Source: Bacteriovoracaceae bacterium
GTDB lineage: Bacteria > Bdellovibrionota > Bacteriovoracia > Bacteriovoracales > Bacteriovoracaceae
Assembly (NCBI GenBank): GCA_965224385.1
Contig: CBDCYX010000012.1
Span: 246,426-310,425, forward strand
Direction of reading: 5' to 3'
Length of the DNA stretch: 64,000 nucleotides
In this document: in pieces, positions 4,187 through 58,249 of the stretch
Numbering within the stretch: the stretch's first letter is position 1
How the letters are laid out: the number at the start of each line of letters is the position of its first letter
Translations under genes and position numbers: made by a program
The notes under the pieces: generated by a model
The model's input: only the letters and a program-made list of their open reading frames with translations
Told to the model about the DNA's origin: nothing
Database searches by the model: none

Positions 4187-4642
4187 ACACCGAGTCCTCA
4201 TGTAATCCTATTACGATTGAAGGAGGGGCAACCGCTAGTTGGATACGGGGTGCCGCCGCAACGGCAGACGTTTGCCTCTTTTCCTGTAGTGCCGGTTTCG
4301 TGAAAAGCGGGAGGGCGTGTAATATCCCCGATACGGGAAATTATGCGGATGGGGCAGGGGCGATGCAAAGTTGCAGTACCCCTACAGGTGGGTTTAACAC
4401 CTTTTTACCCAATTCTTACAAAAGAGGGCATCGCCCGTAAGATCGTTTCTGAAGTTAGCGACGTAAACTGGGCGGGTAAACAGTACATGGATTTACCTTA
4501 CACGACGACAATACTCGATGGTTCAAGCGATGCCGGCGATGACTGCCCCGCCAACGATTTTTGTGTCGCCTTCTGGCGTGTGTTCAAAGGAACAGAAGGA
4601 AATTATGGAATCCCCTTCGGGGATCGGGACTACTCACATTAA
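4187..4642 (+). pseudogene. Dead fragment of the Cys-repeat/RCC1 lipoprotein family: 5'-truncated, internally deleted and out of frame
   Basis: 4187-4420 encodes ..TESSCNPITIEGGATASWIRGAAATADVCLFSCSAGFVKSGRACNIPDTG.., which are Cys repeats like 34633-38295. It is joined out of frame near 4420 to the last ~75 codons (LTKEGIARKIVSEVSDVNWAGKQY..FGDRDYSH*), which differ at 6 of ~228 nt from the 3' end of 55097-58249. Confidence 0.85.
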
Positions 4643-34632: not shown

Positions 34633-37600
34633 TTATGGCAAGTGTGAGTAGTCGGAATCTCCAAAGGGAATACCGTAATTTCCTTCCGTCCCTTTGAACA
34701 CACGATCGAAAACAACACAAAAGGCGGAGTCGGGGCAGTCGTCATTAGGATCGGTTGAACCGTCGAGTTTTGTCGCCGTATAAGGTAAATCCACGTTCTG
34801 CTTACCCGCCCAACTTGCGTCGTCGTTAACTTTCGCTACGATCTTATCGGCAATCTCCTCTTTTGTAAGATTGGAATTTCCAAGGCCGGTGTGTACGCTA
34901 TCGAGGTTGACGGTTTTATCTCCGGTTCCCGTATAGTCCTCCGAGATAACCCATAGTCCTTCTGCTCCGGCAGCGCCGCTTCCTCCAGTGAGGGGGATAT
35001 TGATCTCTACGCGAGTTCTTGTGCAGTTTCCGCCGTCATCGTCGTGGTAGATAGTTAAATTCAATCCGTTAAAGACGGCGGAGTTAACGGTTGCCTCTAT
35101 TTTGTCATTGCCTTTTTTAGCTAACGTCACATTGGTTCCCGCCATGTTCACGGGGGAACCGATCTTTGCAATCAGACTATCTATAACATTGGTAATCATT
35201 GTGCTGCCTCCAGTATTGTACGTTAGCGGTGTCGAATACTCCTTAAGAATCCAAGAACCGCCAAGGGTTCGGCCGGTAAATGCTAGAGCACAAATCTTCC
35301 CGCCTGCATCTGCTTCCAGTGCCGTCGCCGTTGGTGTAGAAACTGCCGTAAGCGTTGCCGTTTCTCCCGTACTCGTTCCCGTTCCGTCGGAACCGCCTGT
35401 CATCGCAACTTCTCCTACGATCTTTCCATAAAAGCCGGTCTCGGCGGCATCAAAATTTTTTCCCCAACACTTAACGGAATTGCCCGATTCCATAATAGCG
35501 CAAGTGTGGTCGTAACTTGCCGCAATTTGAATAGCGGTTTGTCCAACCAAGGGGTCGCCCGCCGTGCCTCTTAAAACCCGATCGGGACCGGAAGTACCGC
35601 CTCCTATCTCACCGTTGTCATTAACCCCCCAACACTTGACGGTCTTATCGCTTAAGAGAACACAACCGTGCTGTGCCCCCAACGTAATCTTTGTGGCGGT
35701 TTTGCCCACGCCTAAGACGGGGAAGCCGAGGTATCCCCAGCACACAACGCTAGCATCGTTGAGGGTGGCGCAAGAACTTGTGCCACCAATTGCAATCTTG
35801 GTGGCGGTTTTGCCGCTACCTAAACTCGGAGTCCCACCGCCTGTTTGCCTGAGGTGATTATACCCCCAGCACTTAACGGAGTTATCCGTTGTTAAGATGG
35901 CACAGGTGTGGAACTCTCCTGCCGCTATATGACTAGCGGTTCCGCTGCCTAAGGGGCTGCCTGACGTACCGCTTTTTGTTTTGTTGGCACCGGCAGTTCC
36001 GCCTCCGCTCTGCCCCCTGTTATTGCGCCCCCAACACTTGACGGTATCGTCGTTTAAAATAGCACAGGTATGCTCTCTTCCTACCGCCACGGACTTGACC
36101 GTGTTAGGGTTGCCGTCTCCATCGTTTCCTACGGCGGTAACAGCTGTCGGGGTGCTTCTAGGGCTAGTATCGCCAACTCCCAGTTGTCTGTTGGAGTTTT
36201 GCCCCCAACACATTAAACGCCCGTGGTTTAAGTTTCCGTTTTTTAAAATAATGCATTGGTGGTTGCGCCCCGACACAAGAGCTTGGGACGTATGGCCCCC
36301 TAAATCCTCCTTGATATGACTTCTCCAAGGGAAGGCACTAACTTTCCCCCATGATTCCACCTCACCGTTATCAAAAAGGACGCGACTGGTGTCTTTTCCA
36401 AGGGCGAGCGTTTGGGGTCTCGCTTTATTGCACATTCTTCCCGATATTGTATAACCCGAGGCACAGGAAAAGGGGCAGGAATCGGCATCGGTGGCAGCTC
36501 CCGATACCCAAGCACCAAAGTTCGGAGTACCCGAAATGTCCGTGCAGGAGACCTCGGCACCCAATGAGTCCACGTAAGTTCCTTGTGTCGGATACTTACA
36601 CCCCCCGGCAGAAGTATCCTTCACATAACCGGCAGTACAGGAAAATGGGCAAGCGGTGTCCGTTGAGGCGGCACCCACTATCCAAGTAGCGACTGCCGTT
36701 CCTTCAGTCGTAATAGCAGTACAGGGGGACTCGGTATTTCCGGCGTTGACGTATTTTCCCTTCGTTGGATAGTTACACTCCCGAGCAGAGGAATCCTTCA
36801 CAAAACCTGCATTACAGGAAAAATCGCAACCGTCAGCAGAATCAACTGCTCCGGTATTTTGCAAAAAGACGTCAAACCCGCTTGCGGCACCTGTGGGGTT
36901 ATCGCAACTTTGCTCGTTTCCTGAACTATCCGCATACTTTCCCGTATCTGGGGTAGCGCACGTTCTACCCACCGTTTTTTTCACAAATCCGGCATTGCAG
37001 GAAAAACCGCAATCGGTAGCAGAATCAACCGCTCCCGTGTTTAGCAAAAAGGTGTTAAACCCACCCGTGGGGTTGTTGCAACTTTGCTCGTCGCCTGAAC
37101 TATCCGCATACTTCCCAAGACCGGGAATATTACACGCCCTACCGGTTTTCACGAAACCCGGACTACAGGAAAAGGGGCAAGCGTCTGCCGTTGCGGCGGC
37201 ACCCCGTATCCAAGTGGCGGTCGCCCCTCCTTGAAGCGTAGTAATAGGATTGCATGATACCTCGGTACCACTCGCATTGACATATGTTCCTTTTGAAGGA
37301 ACGTCACAAGTACTACTTGCCGTGTTTTTTAAATAACCGCCGTCGCAGGTGTAACAGCCGTCCGCAGAGGAAAGTTCCGTTGTTGTCGTAGCAGAAGAAT
37401 GGGGAGGAGTCGGACAAGCTGTCCGAGCTTTGTCGTTTGCAGGAGAATAGAACCCCGATGCGGTTTGTTGGCATTGGGCAGTGTCTACATCATTATCATA
37501 TCCTGCATCGCAAGTCTCCACGGTACAAGTCGTGCTAAAATCGTCTGTGTTTGTATCCCAGAGGTTGAGTCCCCCTCCGTTGGGGACGGGATTAACGGGA

Positions 37601-38295
37601 TTAACGGGACAAGAGCGGGACTTGTTACAGGAAAAAAGAGATTCGCTCTTTGTAAATCCACTGTTACAGGAAAACTCACACTTATCGTTACTTGCCACGG
37701 GAGCAGTGTTGTTTTCCCAGTGAGAAAACCCTCCCGACGGAGTCTCGCCGACATCATTGCAACTCTGTAGATTTCCTTGGGCGTCGTAGTACTTCCCCTT
37801 ACCGGGAAGCGTACATTTTTTGTTGCTTGTATTCTTTAAAGACCCCGCCTTACAGTTCCAGCAGTCGGTTTCCGATTTAGTCCCCGTGGCGGTGTTCCTA
37901 AGAGAATGAGGGGGAAACGTTGTCAGGCATTTTTTCCTAGTCTTGTCCTTTGCGAGAGAGTAGTACCCTGCCTGAGTTTTTCCACATTGTGCTGGATTTG
38001 CAACATTATCATATCCCGCATTACAAGAGACGACTTTGCATGTTGTGCTATATTTTTTGGTTTTGGTATTCCAAGGAAGTTCTCCCTTCCCGTTGGGAAT
38101 AGGAGTCGTACACACTTTAGCAGCTTTAGCTTTTTTACTCGAAGAGGTCGAATCGCCGCCACCACCACTGCTCCCACCACAGCCCGACAGTAAGAGAAGA
38201 GAGAGAAACGTGTGATAAAGGCAGAGCTTCATGTGACCGATCCAAATAGTCGGGAAGGGGTGGGGTAGCATGAGAATATTTTTAAAAGGTTTCAT
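34633..38295 (-). CDS. Large surface lipoprotein: Cys-rich ~50-aa repeats + 7 RCC1-like blades + conserved C-terminal module (family member P1)
   Basis: AAGGAG 6 nt upstream of the ATG at 38295. Lipobox LLLSGC. Repeats of type C.F.C..G..K....C..P..G.Y. Seven (C/S)WG motifs. C-terminus ..DDCPDSAFCVVFDRVFKGTEGNYGIPFGDSDYSHLP. The alternative start at 38232 is also possible. Confidence 0.85.
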   Translation of the reverse strand: MKPFKNILMLPHPFPTIWIGHMKLCLYHTFLSLLLLSGCGGSSGGGGDSTSSSKKAKAAKVCTTPIPNGKGELPWNTKTKKYSTTCKVVSCNAGYDNVANPAQCGKTQAGYYSLAKDKTRKKCLTTFPPHSLRNTATGTKSETDCWNCKAGSLKNTSNKKCTLPGKGKYYDAQGNLQSCNDVGETPSGGFSHWENNTAPVASNDKCEFSCNSGFTKSESLFSCNKSRSCPVNPVNPVPNGGGLNLWDTNTDDFSTTCTVETCDAGYDNDVDTAQCQQTASGFYSPANDKARTACPTPPHSSATTTTELSSADGCYTCDGGYLKNTASSTCDVPSKGTYVNASGTEVSCNPITTLQGGATATWIRGAAATADACPFSCSPGFVKTGRACNIPGLGKYADSSGDEQSCNNPTGGFNTFLLNTGAVDSATDCGFSCNAGFVKKTVGRTCATPDTGKYADSSGNEQSCDNPTGAASGFDVFLQNTGAVDSADGCDFSCNAGFVKDSSARECNYPTKGKYVNAGNTESPCTAITTEGTAVATWIVGAASTDTACPFSCTAGYVKDTSAGGCKYPTQGTYVDSLGAEVSCTDISGTPNFGAWVSGAATDADSCPFSCASGYTISGRMCNKARPQTLALGKDTSRVLFDNGEVESWGKVSAFPWRSHIKEDLGGHTSQALVSGRNHQCIILKNGNLNHGRLMCWGQNSNRQLGVGDTSPRSTPTAVTAVGNDGDGNPNTVKSVAVGREHTCAILNDDTVKCWGRNNRGQSGGGTAGANKTKSGTSGSPLGSGTASHIAAGEFHTCAILTTDNSVKCWGYNHLRQTGGGTPSLGSGKTATKIAIGGTSSCATLNDASVVCWGYLGFPVLGVGKTATKITLGAQHGCVLLSDKTVKCWGVNDNGEIGGGTSGPDRVLRGTAGDPLVGQTAIQIAASYDHTCAIMESGNSVKCWGKNFDAAETGFYGKIVGEVAMTGGSDGTGTSTGETATLTAVSTPTATALEADAGGKICALAFTGRTLGGSWILKEYSTPLTYNTGGSTMITNVIDSLIAKIGSPVNMAGTNVTLAKKGNDKIEATVNSAVFNGLNLTIYHDDDGGNCTRTRVEINIPLTGGSGAAGAEGLWVISEDYTGTGDKTVNLDSVHTGLGNSNLTKEEIADKIVAKVNDDASWAGKQNVDLPYTATKLDGSTDPNDDCPDSAFCVVFDRVFKGTEGNYGIPFGDSDYSHLP

Positions 38296-38408
38296 AAAGC
38301 TCTCCTTGCTTTTAAATGTGGTTAAAAAATAATAGTCCTCCTTTATAATAAATTTTGAACACCGAAAACGCAAAAGATTTTTATATTACCGATTAAAATG
38401 GTTCATTA

Positions 38409-39178: not shown

Positions 39179-39215
39179 TATTGGAAAGTAAATTTAGTAT
39201 AGGGAGGTATCTATC

Positions 39216-42200
39216 ATGAACGGACGTTTTGGCATCTCTGTTGTTTATATTTGTCTTATTTTACTGGTATCTTGTGGAGATAATAGTAGCGGAGGAAAGA
39301 AAAGCACCACATCTAAAGACATACAAACCCTCGATTGTTCAAATGAAATTATTAACGGAACCGGACATAAAAAATGGAATACAAAAACGAAGTCTTATAG
39401 GAATGTATGTGAAATCTCCGGTTGCTACGGAGGGTTTGATACTTTAGAAGACTCGGCCATCTGCTTAGAGACACTAATAGGATACTATTCCCCTCCTGAA
39501 AGTAAACTTCGAGAGGAATGCCCCGGGACTCCCCCTCAAAATGCATCTCTTGTAACGGACACGTCGGGAATTTCCACCCGTCATGAGTGTTGGATCTGCA
39601 ATGACGGTTTTATTAAGGATGAACAAGGCAATTGTGTTCCTCCTGCTAAAGGAAAATATGTCGATGCGGAAGGAAGGGAGAGTGCTTGTTCTCCTATTAT
39701 GGGAAACGGTTTTAAGGAATTTAGAGGCCATGGAGGAACATCTCCCGAGGGTTGCAACTTTTCCTGTAAAAGCTCCCATACAAAAAATACGCAAACAAAA
39801 ACTTGTGACGAAAGAAACAAAGCATCTCAATATTGCCAGGTTGGTAACGGAGAAGGAATACGCATAGGGGGAGGATCGACCTGCTACATTACTTCCTGTG
39901 ATGACGGGTACGACAATATTAAGGATAGAACAAAGTGTGAAGAAACTCCATCGGGGTTTTACTCTTTTTTAGGACGAAAAATAACGTGTCCGAATCCTTT
40001 CAATTCTATTCCCACTGACAGAACCGGTCTTTCGTCTCCTTACAACTGTTATAGCTGTGAACCGGGTTATAAAAAGAGGGAAAGAGGAAGCGGATTGTGC
40101 ATCCTTCCCTTTCGGGGGAAGTACGTCGATACTACCGGCATCGAACAAAGTTGTACCGAGATACAAGGAGAGGGATTTAAGTCCTTTATAAAAAATACGG
40201 AAGGAGTCATGTCCGCCGATGAATGTGATTTTGTCTGTAGAAAGGGTTTTAAGAAAAATATCGTCGGACGAACGTGTGATAATATAGCTCTCGCAAACAT
40301 CCCCGGCGCAACTCCGGACGCAACGCCTGGAGAAACTCCCAATGTCGTACCCGAAGTAACTTCAGAATATTGTTCGATTGAAAACGGCATGGGCCAAAAA
40401 TTTTGTCAAGGCGGCCAATGTGGATCGTGCGAGGTTCAACGCTGTAATAAAAGTTATAAACCCAACACGAAAAACTCGACGAATCATCTTTGTACTGCCG
40501 CCGTCAAAAATTGTTCCCAGGAAATTGCAAACGGAAAGGGAAGGCGGCGTTGGCATGCGTCGACAAATGCTTATGGTGCCTGCAAAGTTGTTCAATGTTC
40601 TATCGGTTATGTGGACAAGAAAACTTCTTGTGCGATTCCTGATTCCGGCAAGTATGCTGATAAAAACGGTAAAGAAAAATCTTGTGAAAGTCTAGGGGGT
40701 ACGGGAAGTGGGCGTTTCCCAGACAACACAAAGGGAGTGAGAAGACCGGAAGATTGCAACTTTGAATGTGATGCCGGTTTTGTTAAAGACGTACCCGGTT
40801 ATGCCTGTAATATTCCGCCCACAGGATGGTATGCGAATAATAGAGGTGAAAAAAACCGTTGTGATAATATGGCCGGGTCCGGAATGGGTCGACATTTGCG
40901 CAATACAGAAGGTGTCACAACAGCGCAAGGCTGTGCCTTTACTTGTGATTTAGGTTATGTCAAAGACATGTCAAGTTATTCCTGTAATATTCCGAACCTT
41001 GGGAAATATGTCGGGGGGGGGGTCGTGAAAAACTGTGGCATTGTGGTGCACGGTCAACGTACGCTCAATACAGGGGCCGTCACAACGGCGACGGGCTGTA
41101 ACTTTGCCTGTGATGCCGGTTATATCAAAGATATGCGGAATTATTCTTGTAATATTCCTACTCTCGGACAATATTCAGGACCTTTGAGAACAGAGAGACC
41201 TTGTCAAGTGATAATCAACGGTCGGCATACGGCCAATGCCGGGGCGGTGGCAAACCCAACGAGTTGTAACTTTGCCTGTGATGCCGGTTACGTCAAAGAT
41301 CAGGACAACTATACCTGTAATGTTCCGAACCTCGGAAAGTATGTCGATAATGCCAATAACGAACTTCCTTGTACCAACATTACAAATATTCCCGATTTTA
41401 ACTCTTGGGAATCCGGCCCGGCCACCGATGACGATAGTTGCCCCTTTTCCTGTCAACCAAATTTTGTTGTAAACGGGAGAACTTGCAAGAAGGAGGTACC
41501 CAAAGTCACGGCCTTGGCCTTAGAGCAACATAAAAGTTATGCTCTCTTTAACAATGGTAAAGTCGAGAGATGGGGGGGGAGTTTGGGTGTTCCCCGTAAA
41601 GTCAATTTAGGCAGCGATAAGGCCCAAGCCGTTTTTTCAGGCCAAAACCACACCTGTGTTATTTTAAAAAACGCTAGTCTTGACCACGGACGGGTTCTGT
41701 GTTGGGGAGAAAACAATTACGGGCAACTGGGTGTGGGCGATATGATCGACAAGAGTGTGCCGACGGCCGTGACGTTTTTAGGTTCAAAAACGGCCAAGGC
41801 CTTAGGACTAGGATATGAGCACACTTGCGCCCTTTTAAACGACGATACCGTGAGCTGTTGGGGGAGAGGAGTCGAAGGCCAAATCGGAGGAAGGGGTAGC
41901 TTGCCGGGTATAAAAATCGAAAGCGGTTCCACAAACAATCCTCTAAGCGGAGGGACGGCCGTTCAGATAGCGGCAGGGTATTACCACACCTGTGCCATCT
42001 TAAACAATGGTTCAATCAAATGCTGGGGATTGGCAACGTCGGCCCAAACAGGTGGCGGGACTCCGAGTTTGGGAAATAATAAGACGGCCAAGCATCTTGC
42101 CTTGGCAGACCTGCACTCCTGTGCCGTTTTAAACGATGATTCTGTCTACTGTTGGGGGGCAGGAGTCAGCGGTAACCCCATCTACATCGGACAGGGAGGA

Positions 42201-43298
42201 GTTCCGGATTTAGGACACAATAAAACGGCCGCTTTCATTTCGGCAGGACATGACAACACCTGTGTTATCTTAAACGATAAAACTGTCAAGTGTTGGGGTA
42301 ACAATGATAATAATGAACTGGGCGGCGGTGTGCCCGATTATACCAAAAACAATAACATCTACACTTATCGGTCTTCCAAGGTTCTAAGGGGGATCAAGTA
42401 CAATCCTTTGGGGGGAGAAAAGGCCCTTTTTATTGCCGTGGGCAGAAACCACGCCTGTGCCGTCGTAGAGACGGGAAATACCGTTAAGTGCTGGGGGGAT
42501 AATGCTTACGGGCAGGCCGTAGGTGCTGTGAAAATGGAAGGGGGAAGCGACGGGACGGGTACGAGTTCCGGAGAGACGGCCGTGCTTACGGTCTCTTCGA
42601 CCCCCACACCGACGGCCTTGGAAGCGGACGCCGGCGGAAAAATCTGCAGGATTTCTCTTTCAGGCGGAGGACTCGGTAGAACTTGGGATATCGTGAACAA
42701 TGTCAATCTTGCCAATCTCCCAACTTATAATAGTTCAAACAATACATCTATTTCAAATGCTATCGACAATCTCGTTAATACCATCGGTACACTTCACTTC
42801 GTTGGGGCCGAGATAACCCTATCCCGAAGCAATAACGACAAAATCGAAGCATCCGTTAATAATGCCGTTTTTGACGGTATGACTCTTAATATCGCCCACG
42901 ACGATAACAGTGGTAATTGTAGTGGCCTGGTGACGACATCTTTTATGTTAAACGGTGGAAGCGGGGCCAATCAGGCCGAAGGAGTTTTGATCGTCAAAGA
43001 CGACTTTAAAGGGTTCGGCGACGGTATGGTCAATATCGACGGTACGGATATTTATTTGAAGGATGTTTTTCCCGCCCATGCAATACAGGAGATCGTAGAT
43101 AAAATCATTGGCGGACTTTCTTCTTTTAACTGGCCGGGAAAACAGTTCGCATCTCTACCCTATAGTGCGGCCAAACTCAATGGCGATACCGATAATAACG
43201 ACGATTGCCCGAGTGGCAATTTTTGTGTCGTCTTCACCCGGATGTTTGCCGGTACGGCCGGGAATGAGGTTATTCCCAAGGCCGATTTCGACTACGAC
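39216..43298 (+). repeat. Unit 1 of the giant ORF (1361 aa, includes the signal peptide and the longest Cys-repeat region)
   Basis: Ends ..NFCVVFTRMFAGTAGNEVIPKADFDYD. Confidence 0.75.
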
Positions 43299-46200
43299 GT
43301 TCCCTCTACCTCCGTTCTTGCAACAACGGCAAACTGCGGGGGCGGCCTTGTGAAAAATTTTCAAGGAAGCGGGAGTTGCGACACTCCCACTTCGGGAAAA
43401 TATGCAAATACTTTCGGAACGCCGATTGATTGTGACCCCGTCGGTGGGGTCGGTTTTAACACTTTTACCGCAAATACGGGAGCGGTCACAACCTCAAAAG
43501 GTTGTGCCTTTTCCTGTCGGGCCGGTTATAAAAAGAACGGTTATACCTGTGCCGTTCCCACGGGGGGGATGTGGGTAGATAACAACGGAGTCGAACAGAC
43601 CTGTACTGCTATTACCCTCGCTCGGGGAGCGAGTCGCATTTGGAAAAGCGGTCCGACAAGCGATGCCGATTCTTGCCTCTTTTCTTGTAGTGCCGGCCAT
43701 GTCCTCAATACTGCCGATAGGAGTTGTGATTTTCCTCCTCAAGGGTCTTTTGTAGACGCAAACGGCCTCCTTAAAGGCATTTGCGACCCCATTGCGCTCG
43801 CTATCGGAGCAACGTCTTCGTGGGTGTCGGGAGCGGCCGACTCAAAGACAGCTTGTTCTTTTTCCTGTAGAAGCGGTTATCTAAAAGATGAAACATTAAG
43901 GGCGTGTAACCATCCGCCTCAAGGACAATATGTCGATAATAACGGAGAAAATCCGATGGTCTGTAGGGTTCCTAGAGATGCCAACTATAAACAATTTGAA
44001 AATGGGCCGGCCGACTCTGCCAACTCCTGCCCTTTTTCATGTAATCAGGGTTATATAGTCAATCTGGGCGATAGGAGTTGTGATATTCCCTCTCCCGGAA
44101 GGTATGCAGACAATAGTGGAAACGAGGCCGATTGTACCGATAATATAGGAGGCATAAACGGAGCTTCCCGTTGGATCCAAAGTCAGGCCCCCGTCTCTTT
44201 CCAGGCGGCCTGCCCATTTACCTGTCTTTCCGGATTTTTAAAGAATTCCCTTTCTAGGAAGTGTAATTATCCTTCGTTGGGAGAATATACTGCCGATGGG
44301 ACAAACACCCTCTCTTGCGGTCCTATTTCCCTTGCCCGGGGGGCCGTTGCCTCTTGGGAGGGGGGCCCAGCGGATGCTGCCGATGCTTGTCCATTTACCT
44401 GTAATGCGGGGTATTTTCCCGACAAGAGAACCTGTCGAAAAATCAACATCAAACCCGTGGCCTTGGCCCTTGGGGCGGAAAGCAGTTACGTTCTTTTAGA
44501 CAACGGTACGATAGAAGGCCAAGGCAACACTTCCGATCCTTCAAAAATTCCTCTCAAAATAGACTTGGGGACTGATACGGCCCAAGCAATTTCGGCCGGA
44601 GACGGACACCGGTGTGCAATTTTGAAAAACGGCAATTTAAAATACGGCCGGCTTATGTGCTGGGGGCGCAACGGAAGCTACCAGCTTGGCCTGAGTGATA
44701 GCAACGACAAAACTACCCCGACGGCCGTTACCCATCTGGGAAGTACCTCTGTGGGTTCTTTGATGGTAAAGAGTGTGGCCGCAGGAGGAGAGCATACCTG
44801 TGCCCTCTTGCAAAACGATACCGTGCGGTGCTGGGGGTCCAACGATTACACTCAGATTGGCGGAAGAAGCGGTTATTATGTAAATAATAGAAAGATAAGA
44901 GGCAGTTACACCGATCCCTTACTCGGAGGAAAGGCCCTCAAAATTGCCGCAGGAGGAAAGCATTCCTGTGCTATTTTAAACAACGGCAGCTTGGTGTGTT
45001 GGGGATCCGACCGTTACAACCAGTCTAGTAATTTGAATTTAGGTGCCGGACGAACGGCCGTCGAGGTTTCGACGGGACTCATTCACACCTGCGCTATTTT
45101 AAATAACGGAGACCTCAAATGTTGGGGAGGGTACGGCCCCGTGAACAACACGTCGTCGGCCGTTCGTATCGCTATGAGTGTCCCGGATTTCGGAGGCAAG
45201 GCCGTCACGCAGGTGGCGGGGTACGATCACACCTGTGCCCTCTTGAACGACAAAACCGTCAAGTGCTGGGGGGGTAACGGCGAGGGGCAGATAGGCGGCG
45301 GCATTGCCGGGGTCAACCGCCTTCTCAGCGGTACTGTAGGCAACCCCTTGAGCGACAGGAAGGCCTTCTTAATTGCGGCCGGTGCGGGCCGTAGTTGTAC
45401 GATCTTGGAGTCTTCAGATTCCGTGAAGTGCTGGGGTAAAGACGACGAAAAACAACTTATTGGTAGTTTGGGCCTTGTAGGGGGTGTCAACGGAATGGGG
45501 ACGAGTGCGGGAGTAAGTGCGCAGTTGACCGCCGCTTCCTCACCGTCAACCACGGCCTTGGGTTCCGATATGAGTGCCATGTTTTGCAAGATAACCCTTT
45601 CCGGCGGAACCCTCACTTCTACCCAAGTCGTCAAGGAAGACCTCAATCTCACTTATAACAGTTCAAACGGAACGAGCATTTCAGATGCCATAACTAATTT
45701 GGTTGCGGCCGTAGGGCCTACCGTCACTTTTGCGGGAGCAATCATTACCCTGTCTAAAAACGGTAGCGACAAAATAGAAGCGACCGTTGACTATCCTTTC
45801 TTTGACGGTATGGATCTTAAAATTCATCACGGCCAGACAAGTTGCAATTCACCCGTCAACACGACGATTTCCCTGAGCGGAGGGGGAGGGGCCGCCCCTG
45901 CAAAAGCTTTGTGGGCCGTCAAAGACGACTTTAACGGACTCGACGACCACACTATCCTCCTAGATACTGTGGAGATCGACCTTGGCAGTAGCGTCCTCAC
46001 GAAAGAACAGATCGTCAATAAAGTTGTACAAGAAATCGGTGGGGGCAGTTGGACGGGCGAGCAATACATAACCCTTCCTTACACAGCGGTCAAACTCGAC
46101 GGGACGACTTCCACCTCCGACGATTGCCCCAGCGGCGATTTTTGTGTGGAGTTTACTCGGGTGTTTGCAGGTAAGGCCGGCAATAACGGCATCCGTTTTC

Positions 46201-49200
46201 CGGATTCCGACTATGAAGTCCTTTCGTTATCTGCGGCCCAATTGGCCTGTGTAAGCGGTGAAGTGAAAAATCTTAAAGGGGCCGGGAGTTGCGATATTCC
46301 CGCTTCCGGAAAATATGTAAATAACGGACAAGAGGTCGATTGCGACCCTGTCGGAGGAGTGTCTAATGCTAGCTCCTTTGAGGTCAACACCGGAGCGGTG
46401 TCTTCAAAGACGGGCTGTGCCTTTTCCTGTCAGGCCGGTTATAAAAAAGATGCCTATGCCTGTAATATTCCCGACGATGGAAGTTATGCCGATGCAAACG
46501 GAAACGAAGTTTCCTGTACGGATATTTCAAACACGCCCCATTTCAGCGCTTGGAAAAGCGGGACGGCCGCCGATGCCAATAGCTGTCCCTTTTCCTGTCA
46601 GACCGGGTATCTGGCCAATCGGCCCCAAGGTACCTGTGATATTCCCGACCCGGGAACCTTTGTGGACGCTTCGGGAGTAGAGCAGAATTGTAACCCCGTC
46701 GGAGGCGTGGCCGGGGTCTCTAAGTGGCCTAGCAATACGGGGCCTGTCAACTTGGTAAATTGTCCTTTCGATTGTGTTAGCGGTTTTCTCAAAGATAGCG
46801 TAACTAGAGAGTGTAACTATCCTCTCTTGGGAGAATACACCGCCGACGGAATAAGCTCGTTGTCCTGTGGTCCAATTATCAAAGATGACGGTGGATTCAA
46901 CGATTGGAAACAGGGGGCCGCCTTCGATGCCGACGGTTGCCCCTTTACCTGTAACCCAACCTATAGTGCCGAAGGCCGTGCCTGTCGAAAAATACAGCGT
47001 AGGCCAGTGGCCCTCTCTTTGGGGTACAAAACAAGCTATGCTCTCTTAGACACAGGTAAAGTTGAGGGTTGGGGTGAGACTATCGATCCCTTGAGTGTCC
47101 CCCACAAGATAAATGTTGGGGCGGATACGCCCCAACAACTTTCCGTCGGCGGCAAACACCGATGTATTATTTTAAAAAATGGAGGTCTTGATCACGGGCC
47201 TGTTAAATGTTGGGGAGAAAACGGCAAGCAACAGCTAGGAATCTCTAATGATAATTACCAAACTCAGCCGACGCTTGTGGCCACAAGTACTCTTTCGACC
47301 ACGGCAAAGTCCGTTTCGGTCGGTGGTAGGCACACCTGTGTCCTCACAAAGAACGATAAGGTCAGATGCTGGGGGGACGTCGGCCAACTCCAAACGGGCG
47401 GAGACCCCTTTAATATCACTCATCAGGGAAATTTCGTAGAAAAAGGTAACTGGTCTTTCCCTTTATGGAAAGGAAGTCAGAACCAAAATGCAAACGCTGT
47501 TTCAGCCGGTTACGAACATACTTGCGCCATCTTGAGAGGGGTTAAAACCGTTACATGTTGGGGGCAAGATGCCCACGGCCAGTCGGCCGGAGGTTCGCCG
47601 AATTTAGGTGTCAACCGAATGGCCAACGGGATTGAGGCGGGAACGAGACACACCTGTGCCCTCTTGGATAACGATAGCGTTAAGTGTTGGGGGAGTTACG
47701 GTAATCAAACGATTTCTTCATCGACAACCTTGGCCTTAAACGGCGGCATCACCAATATTACAAACGGTATTGTCGATTTAGGTAGCAAAACGGCCGTTAA
47801 ACTTACAGGGGCCGGACACACCTGCGCCCTTTTAAACGATGAGACCGTGAAGTGTTGGGGCATTAATGACGAAGGACAGATAGGCGGCGGTGTAGCGAGT
47901 ACCGGCCGTGTCCTCCGCAGTAGCGTAGGAGACCCGGTAAGCGGCCTGGCCGTCCTTGATATAGCAGCAGGATGGGATCATACCTGTGCCATCTTGAAGA
48001 CGACAAACGAAGTAAAATGTTGGGGGAACAATTCCGAAGGACAACTCATCGGTAGCGTTACCATGAAGAACGGCCAAGACGGGGTCGGAACAAGCACGGG
48101 GAAAACCGTCGCACTTTCCGTGAGTACTACTCCAAGTTCAAGTACCCTGGGAAAAAAGTTGAGTGCGAGGCTGTGCGGGATAACCCTTTCCGGCAGGGAC
48201 TTGCAGTCTCCTTGGACTCTTCAAGAATACGATTTTACCTATAACAATAGAAACAACGTCAATCTTAGAGATGCCATTGATAATGTGTTGAAGAAGATTG
48301 GAAGTGCCGACAACGCAGAATACTCTTTTTTGACTCGTGAAACAGTCCTTGAATTTAGAGGGGCGGCAGATGTCTCCGATCCTCTCAATAAAATCACATT
48401 TTCCGTGAAGGGAGGGGGGAGTAAACTGGCAGCGTCCGTAGATACTCCCATCTTTTCCGGTATGAGCTTGAATATTCTGCTCGCTAACGGGGACTGTCAT
48501 TCTTCCTCGGCCCTATCTATTCCCTTAAGCGGAGGAAGTGATACGGCCCAAGCATCGGGACTTTGGGTTGTGGGTCATGACTTTATCGGTTCGGGTGATA
48601 CAAGCGTGCAATTTGATGGGGTGGATATTGATCTTGGAAGTTCGGCCCTGACAAAAAAGGAAATTGCGGATAATCTCGTTGTTAAAATAGGGAGCGCTTC
48701 TTGGGGCGGTAAACAGTATGAAAAATGGCTTTATACGGCAAAAACGGTAGACAGTGCCTTAAACAGCGATTGCCCATCGGGAGACTTCTGTGTACAGTTC
48801 ACCCGTATTTTTCCCGGGATGTTGGGAAACAGCGGTATTCCCTTTGCCGACTCCGATTATGAGATACCCTCCGCTAATGCCCTTGCTTTAGTCTGCAATA
48901 CCGGTCTTGTAAAAAACCTTTTGGATGTAACTTGTGATAATCCTCCTGCGGGAAAATATGCAAATAGCGGACAAGAGATGGATTGCGACCCCGTGGGGGG
49001 AGATGGTTTTAACGTTTTTGAGACCAACACGGGAGCGGTAACGTCTGCTCAAGGTTGTGCTTTTTCCTGCAATGCCGGTTATAAAAAAGCTACCTACTCC
49101 TGTAACGTGCCTGTCGACGGAACGTATGTGGACGGTACAAATACGCCGAAAAATTGCGACCCCGTTACGCTTGCCTTGGGAGCGACGTCTTCTTGGATAT

Positions 49201-51464
49201 CGGGTGCGGCCGACTCTAAACAGGCCTGTCCCTTTTCCTGTTCGTCCGGTTATATTGTCAATAGGGGCGGATGGACTTGTGACCTTCCCGCTCCCGGAAC
49301 TTATGGTCTCGCCAACGGAAGCGAGACCGACTGTAACACTATAGGGGGTGCTCCGAACAGCTTTCAGTGGACGCAAAGTCCCGGTGCCGTCACATCGCCC
49401 TCGACTTGTCCTTATGAATGCCGTGCCGGTTATGTGAGCACTTCGGGCGATAGAACATGCAATTACCCGGGAAGGGGAAGATACGTGAACACCGACGGGA
49501 CAACCCAAGTGGATTGCGACAACCTTACCATGATACCGGGGTTTGAAGATTGGGCCGAAGGATTTGCTACGGCCCGTGATAATTGCCCCTTTAATTGCCT
49601 TCCCGGATATATTAGAGACGGGCGGAGTTGCGAGCAACTTGCGTCGATTAAACCCGTAGGTTTGGCGCTTGATAATATTCACAGTTACGTTCTTTTAAAC
49701 TCCGGTGAAGTGGAGGGTTGGGGGGCCTCTACCGAACTTTTCAAGGTGCCTTTTAAAATAGATTTGGGAGTGACAAACGGTGTAAGGAATACTGCCCAAA
49801 AGATTTTTGCGGGAGTTCATCACACATGTATTGTTTTAACAAACGCAAAGCTGGATCACGGGCCGCTTAAGTGCTGGGGGAGTAATGATCTGGAACAACT
49901 CGGAGTGGGGGATAGGATTGAAAGAACCGTTCCCACCGATGTAACCGCCTTGGGTTTGGATGCAAGCAATAATCCGTATACGGCAAAGATTGTGGCGATG
50001 GGTTCGTATCATACCTGTGCTATCTTAAACGACGATACCGTCAAGTGTTGGGGAGGAAACCACGTCTACGGACAGATAGGCGGTACGGCAAGAAATTCTT
50101 TCGGCAATAATACGATTGTAGAGAGCGGTAGCAGGGGTGATCCTTTAAGTGGAGCAAAGGTTGCGGGGTTGGCCACCGGAGGCGCAAGTTGTGCCATTTT
50201 AAAATCAGATAATTCCGTTAAGTGTTGGGGGTTGGATGACTCAGGCCAGGCCGCCGGCGGTGTGCCGAATTTGGGTACCAACAGAACTGCTGTTCAAGTT
50301 GCGGCAGGGTACTACCATGCCTGCGCTCTCCTAGACGATAAGGGCCTTAAATGTTGGGGGGCCGATAACAACGTTACCATTATCGGAACGGGAGGGGTTC
50401 CCGATTTGGGAGGTCAAACGGCCGATTTCGTTACCTCAGGCCTACATGCCGGGTACATCTGTGCCATCTTGAGCGACGACACCGTCAAGTGTTGGGGCGA
50501 TAATAGAGAAGGCCAGATAGGGGGTACCGCTACGACACCTACATCATCCTATGTACAAATACAAAGGGGGACGGCCGGTGGCCCCTTAGGTACGACCTCG
50601 GCCGCTCAGATTGCCGTGGCACAAGGACACGGCTGTGCTATTATGACGGACGACACCGTCAAGTGTTGGGGGGGAAACAGTAGCGGACAGATTGTGGGCG
50701 CCGTTAGAATGAAAGGTGGAACCGACGGGAGCGGGTCGAGTTGGGGAAAAACCGGCCAGTTAACTACGGATTCCACACCGAGTTCTCTTGCCTTGGATAA
50801 AGATAAAAGCGGTAAGATTTGTAAGATAACCTTGTTGGGCGGAATGCCTAGCAGGACTTGGACGCTGAAGTCCTATCAGACGCCAAAACTCTACAATACA
50901 TCAAGAAATACATCTATTTTCAATGCCATTGACAATATGATCGGCAAAATTGGAACGTTTCAATTTATGGGTGCGTCCGTCTCCTTTTCCAGAAAAGGTA
51001 AAAAGATCAAGGCATCGGTGGATAGTTCTATTTTTGACGGCATGACTCTTGGAATCGTCCATGCCGATAGTTCCGGGGACTGTTCAAGTCCGGTGACGAC
51101 CTCCCTTGTTCTTAGTGCCGGAACCGTTGGGGCCAAGGCGACGGGACTTTGGGTTATAGGGGATTCTTTTTCAGGAAAGAGCGACGATACAACCGTTCAT
51201 CTCGACGGTGCGACCGTTGACTTGGGTACCTCCTCCCTTACCAAAGAACAGATTGCCAATAACATCATAGGGAGAGTTATCGACGCCGGTTGGATGGGAA
51301 AACAGTACAAAACGCTACCTTATATGGCCGAAAAAATCGACGGAGCGACCGATTCCGCCGACGATTGCCCAAACAATGACTTCTGTGTTCTCTTCACCCG
51401 TATTTTCCCGGGGACGACCGGAAACGAGGGTATTCCCTTTCCCGACTCGGATTATGCCAAGTAG
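39216..51464 (+). CDS. Giant (4082-aa) surface lipoprotein made of four tandem Cys-repeat/RCC1/C-terminal-module units (family member P2)
   Basis: GGGAGG 8 nt upstream of the ATG. Lipobox ILLVSC. Uninterrupted ORF. The ..DDCP..FCV.FTR.F.G..GN..I.F.DSDY motif occurs four times. Confidence 0.85.
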   Translation: MNGRFGISVVYICLILLVSCGDNSSGGKKSTTSKDIQTLDCSNEIINGTGHKKWNTKTKSYRNVCEISGCYGGFDTLEDSAICLETLIGYYSPPESKLREECPGTPPQNASLVTDTSGISTRHECWICNDGFIKDEQGNCVPPAKGKYVDAEGRESACSPIMGNGFKEFRGHGGTSPEGCNFSCKSSHTKNTQTKTCDERNKASQYCQVGNGEGIRIGGGSTCYITSCDDGYDNIKDRTKCEETPSGFYSFLGRKITCPNPFNSIPTDRTGLSSPYNCYSCEPGYKKRERGSGLCILPFRGKYVDTTGIEQSCTEIQGEGFKSFIKNTEGVMSADECDFVCRKGFKKNIVGRTCDNIALANIPGATPDATPGETPNVVPEVTSEYCSIENGMGQKFCQGGQCGSCEVQRCNKSYKPNTKNSTNHLCTAAVKNCSQEIANGKGRRRWHASTNAYGACKVVQCSIGYVDKKTSCAIPDSGKYADKNGKEKSCESLGGTGSGRFPDNTKGVRRPEDCNFECDAGFVKDVPGYACNIPPTGWYANNRGEKNRCDNMAGSGMGRHLRNTEGVTTAQGCAFTCDLGYVKDMSSYSCNIPNLGKYVGGGVVKNCGIVVHGQRTLNTGAVTTATGCNFACDAGYIKDMRNYSCNIPTLGQYSGPLRTERPCQVIINGRHTANAGAVANPTSCNFACDAGYVKDQDNYTCNVPNLGKYVDNANNELPCTNITNIPDFNSWESGPATDDDSCPFSCQPNFVVNGRTCKKEVPKVTALALEQHKSYALFNNGKVERWGGSLGVPRKVNLGSDKAQAVFSGQNHTCVILKNASLDHGRVLCWGENNYGQLGVGDMIDKSVPTAVTFLGSKTAKALGLGYEHTCALLNDDTVSCWGRGVEGQIGGRGSLPGIKIESGSTNNPLSGGTAVQIAAGYYHTCAILNNGSIKCWGLATSAQTGGGTPSLGNNKTAKHLALADLHSCAVLNDDSVYCWGAGVSGNPIYIGQGGVPDLGHNKTAAFISAGHDNTCVILNDKTVKCWGNNDNNELGGGVPDYTKNNNIYTYRSSKVLRGIKYNPLGGEKALFIAVGRNHACAVVETGNTVKCWGDNAYGQAVGAVKMEGGSDGTGTSSGETAVLTVSSTPTPTALEADAGGKICRISLSGGGLGRTWDIVNNVNLANLPTYNSSNNTSISNAIDNLVNTIGTLHFVGAEITLSRSNNDKIEASVNNAVFDGMTLNIAHDDNSGNCSGLVTTSFMLNGGSGANQAEGVLIVKDDFKGFGDGMVNIDGTDIYLKDVFPAHAIQEIVDKIIGGLSSFNWPGKQFASLPYSAAKLNGDTDNNDDCPSGNFCVVFTRMFAGTAGNEVIPKADFDYDVPSTSVLATTANCGGGLVKNFQGSGSCDTPTSGKYANTFGTPIDCDPVGGVGFNTFTANTGAVTTSKGCAFSCRAGYKKNGYTCAVPTGGMWVDNNGVEQTCTAITLARGASRIWKSGPTSDADSCLFSCSAGHVLNTADRSCDFPPQGSFVDANGLLKGICDPIALAIGATSSWVSGAADSKTACSFSCRSGYLKDETLRACNHPPQGQYVDNNGENPMVCRVPRDANYKQFENGPADSANSCPFSCNQGYIVNLGDRSCDIPSPGRYADNSGNEADCTDNIGGINGASRWIQSQAPVSFQAACPFTCLSGFLKNSLSRKCNYPSLGEYTADGTNTLSCGPISLARGAVASWEGGPADAADACPFTCNAGYFPDKRTCRKINIKPVALALGAESSYVLLDNGTIEGQGNTSDPSKIPLKIDLGTDTAQAISAGDGHRCAILKNGNLKYGRLMCWGRNGSYQLGLSDSNDKTTPTAVTHLGSTSVGSLMVKSVAAGGEHTCALLQNDTVRCWGSNDYTQIGGRSGYYVNNRKIRGSYTDPLLGGKALKIAAGGKHSCAILNNGSLVCWGSDRYNQSSNLNLGAGRTAVEVSTGLIHTCAILNNGDLKCWGGYGPVNNTSSAVRIAMSVPDFGGKAVTQVAGYDHTCALLNDKTVKCWGGNGEGQIGGGIAGVNRLLSGTVGNPLSDRKAFLIAAGAGRSCTILESSDSVKCWGKDDEKQLIGSLGLVGGVNGMGTSAGVSAQLTAASSPSTTALGSDMSAMFCKITLSGGTLTSTQVVKEDLNLTYNSSNGTSISDAITNLVAAVGPTVTFAGAIITLSKNGSDKIEATVDYPFFDGMDLKIHHGQTSCNSPVNTTISLSGGGGAAPAKALWAVKDDFNGLDDHTILLDTVEIDLGSSVLTKEQIVNKVVQEIGGGSWTGEQYITLPYTAVKLDGTTSTSDDCPSGDFCVEFTRVFAGKAGNNGIRFPDSDYEVLSLSAAQLACVSGEVKNLKGAGSCDIPASGKYVNNGQEVDCDPVGGVSNASSFEVNTGAVSSKTGCAFSCQAGYKKDAYACNIPDDGSYADANGNEVSCTDISNTPHFSAWKSGTAADANSCPFSCQTGYLANRPQGTCDIPDPGTFVDASGVEQNCNPVGGVAGVSKWPSNTGPVNLVNCPFDCVSGFLKDSVTRECNYPLLGEYTADGISSLSCGPIIKDDGGFNDWKQGAAFDADGCPFTCNPTYSAEGRACRKIQRRPVALSLGYKTSYALLDTGKVEGWGETIDPLSVPHKINVGADTPQQLSVGGKHRCIILKNGGLDHGPVKCWGENGKQQLGISNDNYQTQPTLVATSTLSTTAKSVSVGGRHTCVLTKNDKVRCWGDVGQLQTGGDPFNITHQGNFVEKGNWSFPLWKGSQNQNANAVSAGYEHTCAILRGVKTVTCWGQDAHGQSAGGSPNLGVNRMANGIEAGTRHTCALLDNDSVKCWGSYGNQTISSSTTLALNGGITNITNGIVDLGSKTAVKLTGAGHTCALLNDETVKCWGINDEGQIGGGVASTGRVLRSSVGDPVSGLAVLDIAAGWDHTCAILKTTNEVKCWGNNSEGQLIGSVTMKNGQDGVGTSTGKTVALSVSTTPSSSTLGKKLSARLCGITLSGRDLQSPWTLQEYDFTYNNRNNVNLRDAIDNVLKKIGSADNAEYSFLTRETVLEFRGAADVSDPLNKITFSVKGGGSKLAASVDTPIFSGMSLNILLANGDCHSSSALSIPLSGGSDTAQASGLWVVGHDFIGSGDTSVQFDGVDIDLGSSALTKKEIADNLVVKIGSASWGGKQYEKWLYTAKTVDSALNSDCPSGDFCVQFTRIFPGMLGNSGIPFADSDYEIPSANALALVCNTGLVKNLLDVTCDNPPAGKYANSGQEMDCDPVGGDGFNVFETNTGAVTSAQGCAFSCNAGYKKATYSCNVPVDGTYVDGTNTPKNCDPVTLALGATSSWISGAADSKQACPFSCSSGYIVNRGGWTCDLPAPGTYGLANGSETDCNTIGGAPNSFQWTQSPGAVTSPSTCPYECRAGYVSTSGDRTCNYPGRGRYVNTDGTTQVDCDNLTMIPGFEDWAEGFATARDNCPFNCLPGYIRDGRSCEQLASIKPVGLALDNIHSYVLLNSGEVEGWGASTELFKVPFKIDLGVTNGVRNTAQKIFAGVHHTCIVLTNAKLDHGPLKCWGSNDLEQLGVGDRIERTVPTDVTALGLDASNNPYTAKIVAMGSYHTCAILNDDTVKCWGGNHVYGQIGGTARNSFGNNTIVESGSRGDPLSGAKVAGLATGGASCAILKSDNSVKCWGLDDSGQAAGGVPNLGTNRTAVQVAAGYYHACALLDDKGLKCWGADNNVTIIGTGGVPDLGGQTADFVTSGLHAGYICAILSDDTVKCWGDNREGQIGGTATTPTSSYVQIQRGTAGGPLGTTSAAQIAVAQGHGCAIMTDDTVKCWGGNSSGQIVGAVRMKGGTDGSGSSWGKTGQLTTDSTPSSLALDKDKSGKICKITLLGGMPSRTWTLKSYQTPKLYNTSRNTSIFNAIDNMIGKIGTFQFMGASVSFSRKGKKIKASVDSSIFDGMTLGIVHADSSGDCSSPVTTSLVLSAGTVGAKATGLWVIGDSFSGKSDDTTVHLDGATVDLGTSSLTKEQIANNIIGRVIDAGWMGKQYKTLPYMAEKIDGATDSADDCPNNDFCVLFTRIFPGTTGNEGIPFPDSDYAK
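43299..46217 (+). repeat. Unit 2 of the giant ORF (973 aa)
   Basis: Starts ..CGGGLVKNFQGSGSCDTPTSGKY and ends ..GDFCVEFTRVFAGKAGNNGIRFPDSDYE. Confidence 0.75.
46218..48863 (+). repeat. Unit 3 of the giant ORF (882 aa)
   Basis: Starts ..ACVSGEVKNLKGAGSCDIPASGKY and ends ..GDFCVQFTRIFPGMLGNSGIPFADSDYE. Confidence 0.75.
48864..51461 (+). repeat. Unit 4 of the giant ORF (866 aa)
   Basis: Starts ..VCNTGLVKNLLDVTCDNPPAGKY and ends ..NDFCVLFTRIFPGTTGNEGIPFPDSDYAK. Confidence 0.75.
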
Positions 51465-58000: not shown

Positions 58001-58249
58001 GCTATGCTTTTTTGTCGTTTTATTCCAAACTTTTTGACCGCTACCGTTGTCGGTAGTGCAAGCTTTTGGTTTCGTGCTAGAGCTTGCCCCCGACGAATCC
58101 CCGCCGCCGCCGCCACTGTCACTGTCACTACCGCAGCTCGACAGTAAGAGAAGAGTAGCTACGAGAAAGTGGGGTCTCATTAATTCCACACCAAGAAGAG
58201 TGAGGTACCGTAAAAAAGTAAAGGTGTTTTTTGTGAGGATTGTTTTCAT
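55097..58249 (-). CDS. Large surface lipoprotein of the Cys-repeat/RCC1 family (member P3)
   Basis: AAGGAG 8 nt upstream of the ATG at 58249. Lipobox LLLSSC at the same distance (39 aa) as in P1. Seven (C/A)WG motifs. C-terminus ..DDCPANDFCVAFWRVFKGTEGNYGIPFGDRDYSH. Confidence 0.85.
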   Translation of the reverse strand: MKTILTKNTFTFLRYLTLLGVELMRPHFLVATLLLLSSCGSDSDSGGGGGDSSGASSSTKPKACTTDNGSGQKVWNKTTKKHSETCTITACDAGYDNVVDKTECQPTAATYYSPTNNNARIACSTPNNSSPTTTTGRSSADACFTCAGGYDNTQDPTKCQQTAANFYSPANNNARTACPTPSNSSPATTTELSSADGCYTCDGGYLKNTGENTCGVPSKGKHVNASGTEVSCSPITLQRGATATWIAGAAATADACPFSCSTGFVKSGRACNIPRKGHYADNGVEKSCSPITEDTGGFDDFVANTGAVSAADGCGFSCSTGFVKSGRSCNFPSTGNYVNTGNTEASCDSNPITTEGTATATWIAGAAATAATCPFSCSAGYLKDSSARECKYPTLGNYVNASGTEVGCTNITGMTGFGSWLDGAATDADSCPFSCASGYTISGRTCNKARPQTLALGRSSSHVLFDNGEVEAWGSVSTSPFKTHIKENLGNNTPQALESGYNHQCIILKNGSLNHGRLMCWGQNGGEQLGVGDTNPRSTPTDVSVAVLGDTGDGATPKTVKSVAAGDEHTCALLNDDTVKCWGQNSNGQIGGGSGAKNTISGTVGGPLGSTTANRISAGRWHTCAVLTDSTVQCWGTNAWGQTSGGTPNLGVNKTATEIAVGDISSCAILNDASVKCWGNKRIPSPSLGVNKTATRVTVGGNHACALLTDKTVYCWGRNPVGQLGSGVDASSRVLRGTTEGDPLGGQTAIEIATGYEHNCAIMESDHSVKCWGSNIDENDSGFYGQIVGEVAMAGGTDGTGTSTGESQVLTAVATPTATALDSDEDGQICKIELSGGTLSGTLGSWVAKEYTTPLTYNGGGSTAITDAIDNLIAAIGSTVNVAGTINVTLAKKDNDKIEATVNNAILDGMTLTIYHDDNGGDCTTGTVVTTAIPLTGGSGAAEAEGLWVISNDFSGSGDKTVNLDSVHIDLGTSSLTKEGIASKIVSEVSDVNWAGKQYVDLPYTTTILDGSSDAGDDCPANDFCVAFWRVFKGTEGNYGIPFGDRDYSH

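Follow-up and report, generated by a model that had tools for sequence, protein, structure and literature searches.

The 64,000-nt stretch of DNA analysed here (the window) carries on its + strand a single open reading frame (ORF) of ~12.2 kb, at 39216..51464, in which four complete units of one protein family lie head to tail; we refer to it as the giant gene. An original prediction had recognized these four units within one ORF, and had noted that units 2-4 are reached without a stop codon, intergenic DNA or signal peptide before them; both points stand. As the best explanation, and a fairly probable one, we propose an intact gene for a four-unit pre-lipoprotein that arose through one fusion junction followed by intragenic duplications, and whose product would be a multivalent surface binding protein. 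Judged from sequence, the ORF is one real, intact gene for a protein, predicted to be exported and lipid-anchored, made of four old, strongly diverged three-part units. In annotation, the 12-kb ORF should stay one gene, neither split nor flagged as an assembly error.

One reading frame, four three-part units

By the ORF list and the translation, the frame is 4082 aa long, starts with ATG and has its sole stop at its end, while the five other frames across 39216-51464 contain 89-288 stops. The product is matched at 100% by P0003 of an independent protein collection (574,743-nt contig in NCBI and the European Nucleotide Archive, ENA). The gene and its parts are laid out as follows.

39202..39207, +, Shine-Dalgarno sequence GGGAGG, 8 nt 5' of the ATG, read from the sequence
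39216..51464, +, giant gene, 4082 codons plus stop (ORF list, translation, frame stop counts)
39216..39275, +, predicted signal peptide and lipobox MNGRFGISVVYICLILLV-S-C20, read from the translation
39276..41495, +, unit 1 Cys-rich region: type-A modules and Pro/Thr linker (aa 21-470), five 57-aa repeats (aa 471-760)
41496..42527, +, unit 1 RCC1 propeller, 7 blades (Pfam and blade motifs)
42528..43298, +, unit 1 C-module, signature at 43203-43295
43299..43334, +, junction 1 linker VPSTSVLATTAN, preceding the half-hairpin CGGGLVKN..C
43335..46217, +, unit 2: six Cys repeats to 44447, RCC1 at 44448-45467, C-module at 45468-46217, signature at 46122-46214
46218..46247, +, junction 2 linker VLSLSAAQLA
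46248..48863, +, unit 3: four Cys repeats to 46997, RCC1 at 46998-48059, C-module at 48060-48863, signature at 48768-48860
48864..48893, +, junction 3 linker IPSANALALV
48894..51461, +, unit 4: four Cys repeats to 49646, RCC1 at 49647-50702, C-module at 50703-51461, signature at 51363-51455

Every unit has the same order, a Cys-rich stalk, a seven-bladed RCC1 propeller and a C-module, and closes with an end signature. The corresponding pattern (DCP.{2,4}FCV.F.R.F.G..GN.{1,2}I..{1,3}D.DY) has exactly four in-frame matches, at aa 1330-1360, 2303-2333, 3185-3215 and 4050-4080, with the last Tyr codons ending at nt 43295, 46214, 48860 and 51455. The ends first reported (43298, 46217, 48863 and 51461) denote the same sites one residue further on, or two in the last case, and the unit lengths given with them (1361, 973, 882 and 866 aa) are correct. 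After each internal signature a further unit does begin, with its own Cys-repeat stalk, seven RCC1 blades and C-module of ~255 aa. In the single-unit paralogs at 34633-38373 (-) and 55097-58249 (-), the signature stands 4 and 2 residues before the stop.

Bacterial lipoproteins begin with a positive n-region, a hydrophobic h-region and a lipobox [LVI][ASTVI][GAS]C within the first ~35 residues. The N-terminus of the giant protein, MNGR-FGISVVYICLIL-LVS-C20-G, follows this rule, showing by eye an n-region Arg, a hydrophobic core and an L-V-S-C lipobox; with the RCC1 blades described below, it bears out the earlier description of a beta-propeller lipoprotein. Promoter and terminator scans of the sequences flanking the gene gave nothing beyond shuffle expectation. 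Two homopolymers, G10 (41013-41022) and G8 (41572-41579), lie within unit 1 and the ORF is intact across both; a slip of -1 or +1 at G10 would end translation at aa 604 or 629. Of the six G/C runs of at least 7 nt in the whole window, five fall in the giant gene. G10 may be a phase-variation tract, but when the codon order of this Gly-rich ORF was shuffled 2000 times, a G run of at least 10 also arose in 95 cases.

The propellers are RCC1-type by profile and seven-bladed by motif count. The blade motif [C/G/R][W/Q]G occurs seven times per unit (28 in total), and Pfam reports RCC1_2 at 500 bits (cut-off 22; 20 stretches, E 7e-155), WD40_RLD at 459.6 bits (cut-off 150; 8 stretches) and RCC1 at 146 bits (cut-off 21.7). 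The solved structures closest in sequence to the unit 4 propeller are UVR8 (E 8e-14), SRM1/RCC1 (4e-8) and RPGR (3e-7).

The stalks are built from a 57-aa repeat with four Cys per period; CxFxCxxGY motifs number 7, 6, 4 and 4 in units 1-4. Unit 1 has in addition ~450 aa of type-A Cys modules, which are also present in the single-unit genes. The Cys count is even in every unit, as expected if all Cys are disulfide-bonded outside the cytoplasm; the mature protein has ~180 Cys, 4.5% of its residues. AlphaFold modelling of single units, suggested along with the original prediction, was carried out in part, on the unit 4 stalk and on the C-module, the latter taken up below. The unit 4 linker and stalk were modelled confidently (predicted local distance difference test, pLDDT, 88) and contain short beta strands only. 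The top Foldseek matches of this model are extracellular Cys-rich rods, namely the Chlamydomonas mastigoneme protein Mst1, the EphA2 cysteine-rich domain (CRD), the TNFR family and NELL EGF, all of them non-significant (best E 1.2e-3, template-modelling score, TM, <=0.33). Pfam Sushi scores the repeats at 21.6 bits in unit 1 (cut-off 20.7) and 16.3 in unit 2, with none in unit 4; relaxed Pfam settings give the stalk marginal Sushi, cEGF and TNFR-like scores (TNFR_ELAPOR1_6th at 13.4 bits against a cut-off of 33.2); and phmmer of the stalk against PDB reaches the complement control protein (CCP) module 1e5g at a marginal E of 0.016. A CCP fold is not the best structural match of the stalk: the sole CCP protein in the Foldseek list, CD46, ranks 47, with probability 0.04.

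The C-module has 250-268 aa and four conserved Cys, and eight copies align end to end with 46 invariant columns (alignment A1). It has no match in Pfam or NCBIfam; NCBIfam gave no match to the units and paralogs as a whole, and no enzyme domain was found in the giant protein with the two collections. A motif of the form xIDGxxIxLG...QIA had suggested something FliD- or flagellin-like, which is unsupported, the Foldseek match to FliD being noise and the PDB profile search empty.

Divergence, junctions and rival origins

Unit-by-unit alignment confirms the four units as diverged copies. Their protein identity is 37-44% over whole units and 44-49% over the cores of RCC1 plus C-module; inter-unit DNA repeats are short, with identity of at most ~75-80% (at most ~74% over ~200 nt), and the longest exact DNA match between units is 16-18 nt. 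Efficient RecA-type unequal crossing-over needs roughly at least 25 nt of identity. With exact matches this short and identity this low, unequal crossing-over between the units is unlikely at present, so that the expectation of a locus prone to unequal recombination does not hold.

Conservation was tested at the 99 alignment positions that do not vary among twelve other family cores. Of these, 91, 90, 86 and 94 are conserved in units 1-4, and in a leave-one-out control the most divergent free-standing members retain 88-89% of the invariant positions. An open frame with 86-94 of 99 invariant residues in each unit, despite divergence of more than 50%, shows purifying selection on the translated product along the whole gene, and contradicts the possibility, raised earlier, that only unit 1 is expressed. 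By this measure the fused state is old and has been kept open by selection over its whole length.

The three internal junctions are alike: ...D.DY-[D/E], a poorly conserved linker of 10-12 aa, and then a half-hairpin C-x-x-G-x-V-K-N-x(4-6)-C, whose Cys aligns, by comparison with the single-unit genes, with the second Cys of the CxxC hairpin closing the type-A module. Loss of the signal peptide from units 2-4 had been predicted correctly, but the entire N-terminal type-A Cys module is gone with it. We also considered the linker ends (..LALVC.., ..AQLAC..) as relic lipoboxes, and rejected this because their Cys is the one aligning with that second hairpin Cys. The first repeats after the junctions (G2r1, G3r1 and G4r1) are mutual best matches, at 60-68% compared with a mean of 38% over all repeats; the best nucleotide alignments among units 2-4 likewise cover unit nt ~46-271, the junction-proximal repeat. 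Other repeats match by position (G2r6 with G3r4 at 59%, G2r3 with G4r2 at 53%, G2r5 with G3r3 at 49%). Given identical breakpoints and the mutual best matches of the first repeats, one junction followed by whole-unit duplication is more economical than three events.

The family to which these units belong is small. A C-module profile found 39 proteins among 1.84 billion representatives, of which ~16 are clear family members, and the giant protein is the only match with four stretches (1496 bits); the same profile found no relatives in 185,579 GTDB species genomes or in the JGI metagenomes. Homolog searches recovered, for the unit 4 C-module, only two fragments, both of a single ENA sample, and not the giant protein itself, and for a junction-spanning segment no match, results that say little since the index evidently lacks the giant gene's own genome. 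Most relatives come from ENA sample ERZ25072854. Four further family loci lie within the window.

34633..38373, -, single-unit paralog, divergent from the giant gene (signature, Pfam, alignment)
55097..58249, -, single-unit paralog p55k (signature, Pfam, alignment)
63021..64000, -, third single-unit paralog, 3' part only (RCC1 end and C-module), continuing past the window end; 77% aa identity to p55k aa 723-1050 (328 aa)
4189..4639, +, family remnant in which a single Cys repeat is fused directly to the C-terminal 75 aa of a C-module (97% aa identical to the end of p55k)

The 97% tail identity of the remnant to p55k suggests that members of the family recombined, or underwent conversion, not long ago. 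Together with P0007, P0011, P0013, P0015 and a gene on the plasmid-like contig L001, the three window paralogs share with the giant protein the lipobox N-terminus, type-A modules, 57-aa repeats, 7-blade RCC1 region, C-module and terminal signature, but have one unit per gene; single-unit genes are 57-80% identical to each other and 44-52% to any giant unit. One relative is encoded on a circular contig of 33.5 kb that also bears TraC and ParA genes; this contig has ~79% DNA identity to the single-unit genes of the window. A counterpart in layout is P0006, a two-unit lipoprotein of 1901 aa that is likewise head to tail, aligns collinearly through all three giant junctions and probably belongs to the same genome. 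Its junction is at the same place (..DSDY, a 7-aa linker, CDPGYVKN..C), but it has only two units, its linker is unalignable and its first post-junction repeat is not specially close (45-47%). P0009 is arranged stalk-RCC1-stalk-RCC1-C-module, P0001, P0004 and P0005 end in two tandem C-modules, and P0013 has 12 identical type-A repeats; from P0006 and these layouts, module duplication within genes is a habit of the family. The more remote profile matches comprise small lipoproteins in which the C-module stands alone (P0024, P0025, P0037) and unrelated long proteins (P0020-P0023) with 3-10 tandem copies of the C-module second lobe, where a tail motif ..FTR...G..GN......D..Y closes each repeat domain of ~100 aa. 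The conserved tail was also considered as a C-terminal sorting signal, and this was rejected because the same motif is internal and in tandem in P0020-P0023 and in the giant protein.

We propose that the fusion probably amplified one junction. In a first event, the extreme C-terminus of a C-module would have been joined in frame to the last type-A hairpin of a downstream copy, removing the stop, spacer, signal peptide and N-terminal module. The block of junction, stalk, propeller and C-module would then have undergone two duplications within the gene; later, different Cys repeats would have been lost from units 3 and 4 (from 6 to 4), all units diverging to 37-49% identity. The original prediction instead saw a tandem paralog array of four complete units from which three stop codons, intergenic regions and signal peptides had been lost, which implies three independent events. 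The stop-free fusion part of that claim holds. Three separate losses, which we think unlikely, agree with the end state, with the presence of several paralogs in the neighbourhood and with a core tree that does not unite units 2-4; they would, however, need three deletions with the same two breakpoints to the residue, and leave the close kinship of the post-junction repeats unexplained. Moreover, neither the window nor related loci hold a head-to-tail array of complete genes, while the relatives document tandem duplication at the level of domains. A less likely alternative still is a polyprotein, exported and cut at or near the boundary between ...D.DY and [D/E][V/I][P/L]S, so that four single units are freed and only the first is lipid-anchored. 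Each junction does reproduce the natural C-terminus of single-unit proteins followed by a short non-conserved linker, and the conserved tail is modelled as unstructured. Yet Pfam and NCBIfam revealed no protease, intein or autoprocessing motif, the tail motif within the long arrays of the unrelated P0020-P0023 is there a mere repeat-domain end, and in P0001, P0004 and P0005 the tail continues straight into the next C-module.

Two further objections concern whether the gene is what it appears to be, and both seem to us highly improbable. One is that paralogs were collapsed, expanded or chimerically joined into a false ORF during assembly. The locus is rich in repeats and insertion sequences (IS), the giant gene is present in one assembly only, and related low-coverage metagenome contigs carry frameshift-split family genes. 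Against this, units with 37-49% protein identity and no exact match above 18 nt offer nothing to collapse on, making collapse or expansion, which had been raised with the original prediction, very unlikely; random joins would not keep frame three times at homologous positions; and the contig is 574,743 nt long, with an ORF uninterrupted at the G10 and G8 homopolymers. The other objection is that only unit 1 matters, units 2-4 being read-through junk or pseudogenes in the making. Units 2-4 have no export signal of their own and unit 3 deviates most (86/99), but 2721 further codons are open despite the >50% divergence, and all units retain 87-95% of the invariant residues, all Cys-repeat cysteines and seven blades.

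Several observations weigh against the one-junction, surface-binding explanation. A neighbor-joining tree of the RCC1 plus C-module cores is star-like, with no supported clade of units 2-4 and only U2+U3 grouping (54% bootstrap), so that the case for a single origin is carried entirely by junction anatomy and repeat r1. A single origin could be mimicked by gene conversion acting on r1, or by domain boundaries that must stay in phase for structural reasons. The linkers of P0006 and P0009 begin at the same half-hairpin yet are unalignable with those of the giant protein, which could reflect recurrent, constrained junction formation. We found no four-unit ortholog in other genomes or samples searched, the gene being in one assembly. 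The C-module was modelled with moderate confidence (pLDDT 68) as two alpha/beta lobes with the conserved tail unstructured (pLDDT <50), and it has no structural or sequence-profile match in PDB, Foldseek returning only T-cell receptor (TCR) and FliD noise at TM <=0.29. Finally, the placement of the host as an uncultured Bacteriovoracaceae/Halobacteriovoraceae relative is tentative, being drawn from one protein, the large subunit of class I ribonucleotide reductase (RNR), with 74-76% identity to Bacteriovoracaceae/Halobacteriovoraceae metagenome-assembled genomes and ~67% to Bacteroidota.

Parallels and proposed function

RCC1, UVR8 and RPGR are 7-bladed RCC1-type interaction platforms, and in this the propellers of the giant protein resemble them. 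Eukaryotes also have proteins with several RCC1-like domains (RLDs), such as HERC1 and HERC2, the latter with several RLDs in one chain of ~4800 aa. The giant's propellers differ from those of eukaryotic RLD proteins in being predicted to be extracytoplasmic and lipid-anchored, in their setting within disulfide-rich stalks, and in having no guanine nucleotide exchange factor (GEF), HECT or effector context. Among bacterial proteins, BLIP-II of Streptomyces exfoliatus is a secreted 7-bladed RCC1-like propeller whose sole job is tight protein binding; unlike the giant protein, it is a single small domain without stalk, C-module or lipid anchor. The stalk is like the TNFR and Eph-receptor CRDs, EGF- and Sushi-type modules and Mst1 in having disulfide-stapled beta-hairpins with a C..P..G.Y-type motif, but its matches to them are at or below significance (Foldseek E >=1.2e-3, TM <=0.33) and do not establish membership.

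RCC1-repeat effectors exist in Legionella (cited in bioRxiv 10.1101/2023.11.21.568195), and RCC1-type giant proteins of Oscillospiraceae, predicted to be extracellular, have many RCC1 propellers, with RCC1 repeats over their entire length and no membrane anchor (bioRxiv 10.1101/2023.11.21.568195). We considered assigning the giant protein to this Oscillospiraceae type and rejected it: RCC1 accounts for ~1390 of its 4082 aa and alternates with modules of two other types, and the N-terminus carries a lipobox. In the giant protein RCC1 makes up about a third of each unit, and the repeating element is a three-part supra-domain. Multi-propeller RCC1 proteins are thus already known, and surface proteins commonly grow by tandem duplication; the novelty lies in a repeating three-part supra-domain unit with an undescribed C-module, together with its age, its lipoprotein context and the rarity of the family. 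The four-unit layout is a rare architecture in a very rare family, yet an ordinary growth mode for bacterial surface proteins. In the literature searched, no paper connects RCC1 proteins to Bdellovibrionota and none names sample ERZ25072854.

The gene illustrates cleanly how a protein can grow in nature through copying of an entire three-domain unit instead of a single domain, with the fused state held open by selection while the copies diverged by >50%. It also exposes an extremely rare, undescribed C-module and a bacterial Cys-rich stalk resembling eukaryotic TNFR/Eph-type rods.

As to function, we infer a lipid-anchored protein rich in disulfides that would bind partner surfaces multivalently, for adhesion or recognition. 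The protein would be exported by Sec and lipidated at Cys20; ~90 disulfides would form in the periplasm; and, with Gly at +2, it would be anchored in the outer membrane, probably facing outward. Four different propeller heads and their C-modules would thereby be spaced on stiff stalks for multivalent, possibly multispecific, binding. A relative encoded in the L085 4238-11261 region of ERZ25072854, P0010, couples a proprotein-convertase P-domain and Sel1 repeats to RCC1 and a C-module, which fits a targeting role; an S8 peptidase gene precedes it and is split by an IS21 insertion, and P0010 would be a family member linked to a protease. That the giant protein recognizes prey or a substrate is a reasonable guess that depends on the tentative taxonomy; should the host be a Bacteriovorax-like predator, the family proteins would be candidates for cell-cell recognition. 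A broader view, doubtful in our estimation, would make the family a mobile-element-borne, fast-shuffling recognition repertoire of a possibly predatory Bacteriovoracia-like host, the giant protein a four-in-one receptor-binding protein and the C-module a new fold. Under this repertoire view the four diverged heads may recognize different prey or partner surfaces, the second lobe of the C-module may be shared with tandem-repeat surface proteins of unrelated bacteria, and neighbouring Rpn-like PD-(D/E)XK nucleases could drive domain shuffling.

Genomic neighbourhood

The family genes (34633-38373, 39216-51464 and 55097-58249) have a GC content of 0.47-0.52 and a GC content at third codon positions (GC3) of 0.44-0.52, while the RNR, tilS and ABC transporter genes of the window have GC ~0.40 and GC3 0.33-0.40. 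This contrast suggests that the genes are of foreign origin or came from a plasmid, or that their composition is strongly biased. Neighbours of family genes are TnpB, DDE, IS21 and Rpn-like PD-(D/E)XK genes and a group II intron. The mobile and repeated features are listed here, with L numbers denoting other contigs.

10090-11810, +, group II intron (Rfam RF02005 at 10090-10324; reverse transcriptase/maturase ORF at 10560-11810, TIGR04416, 366 bits)
13453-13705, 15558-15811, 51952-52202 and 39055-39178 in the window, and L083 8747-9036 and 21219-21483, copies of a dispersed ~270-nt element
4923-5963, 33801-34316, 59014-60000 and 60702-61217 in the window, and L001 12920-13855, Rpn/YhgA-like PD-(D/E)XK genes (PDDEXK_2 / Transposase_31)

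An IS21-like element on a contig of ERZ25072854 (L085 5035-6868) is 99% identical to window positions 731-1917 and 3531-4191, indicating that the organism of the window, or a very close relative, was present in that sample. In the window a DDE transposase gene (2015-3481) splits the IS21-like sequence as a nested insertion. The family genes were also considered as possible targets of a diversity-generating retroelement (DGR), and this was rejected: the sole reverse transcriptase (10560-11810) is that of the group II intron, and no template- or variable-repeat-like (TR/VR-like) repeat lies nearby.

The Rpn/YhgA-like genes adjoin family genes or remnants both in the window and on the plasmid-like contig L001, and may be linked to the shuffling of family modules. 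Beside p55k, the ORF region 53532-54615 has 86-94% DNA identity to L001 11405-12553 and L002 10904-11041, where it is also beside family genes; it is better conserved than the family genes (~79%) and has no match in Pfam or NCBIfam.

The dispersed element has a 5' hairpin GTGGCC...GGCCAC and a sharp, near-invariant 3' end ...GGGGTAGTTCAA, and no Rfam match. A 3' half-copy ends 38 nt before the giant ATG and a full copy in the same orientation lies 490 nt past its stop; another pair flanks the ORF at 13995-15473. It looks like a miniature inverted-repeat or palindrome-associated transposable element (MITE/PATE) and may descend from an IS200/IS605-type element whose right end is structured. Elsewhere in the window, 21542-24061 (+) encodes an 839-aa tetratricopeptide repeat (TPR)/Sel1-repeat protein with a C-terminal trypsin-like peptidase domain, and its gene adjoins a TnpB gene (OrfB_IS605 / Cas12f-like TNB) at 24073-25314 (-).

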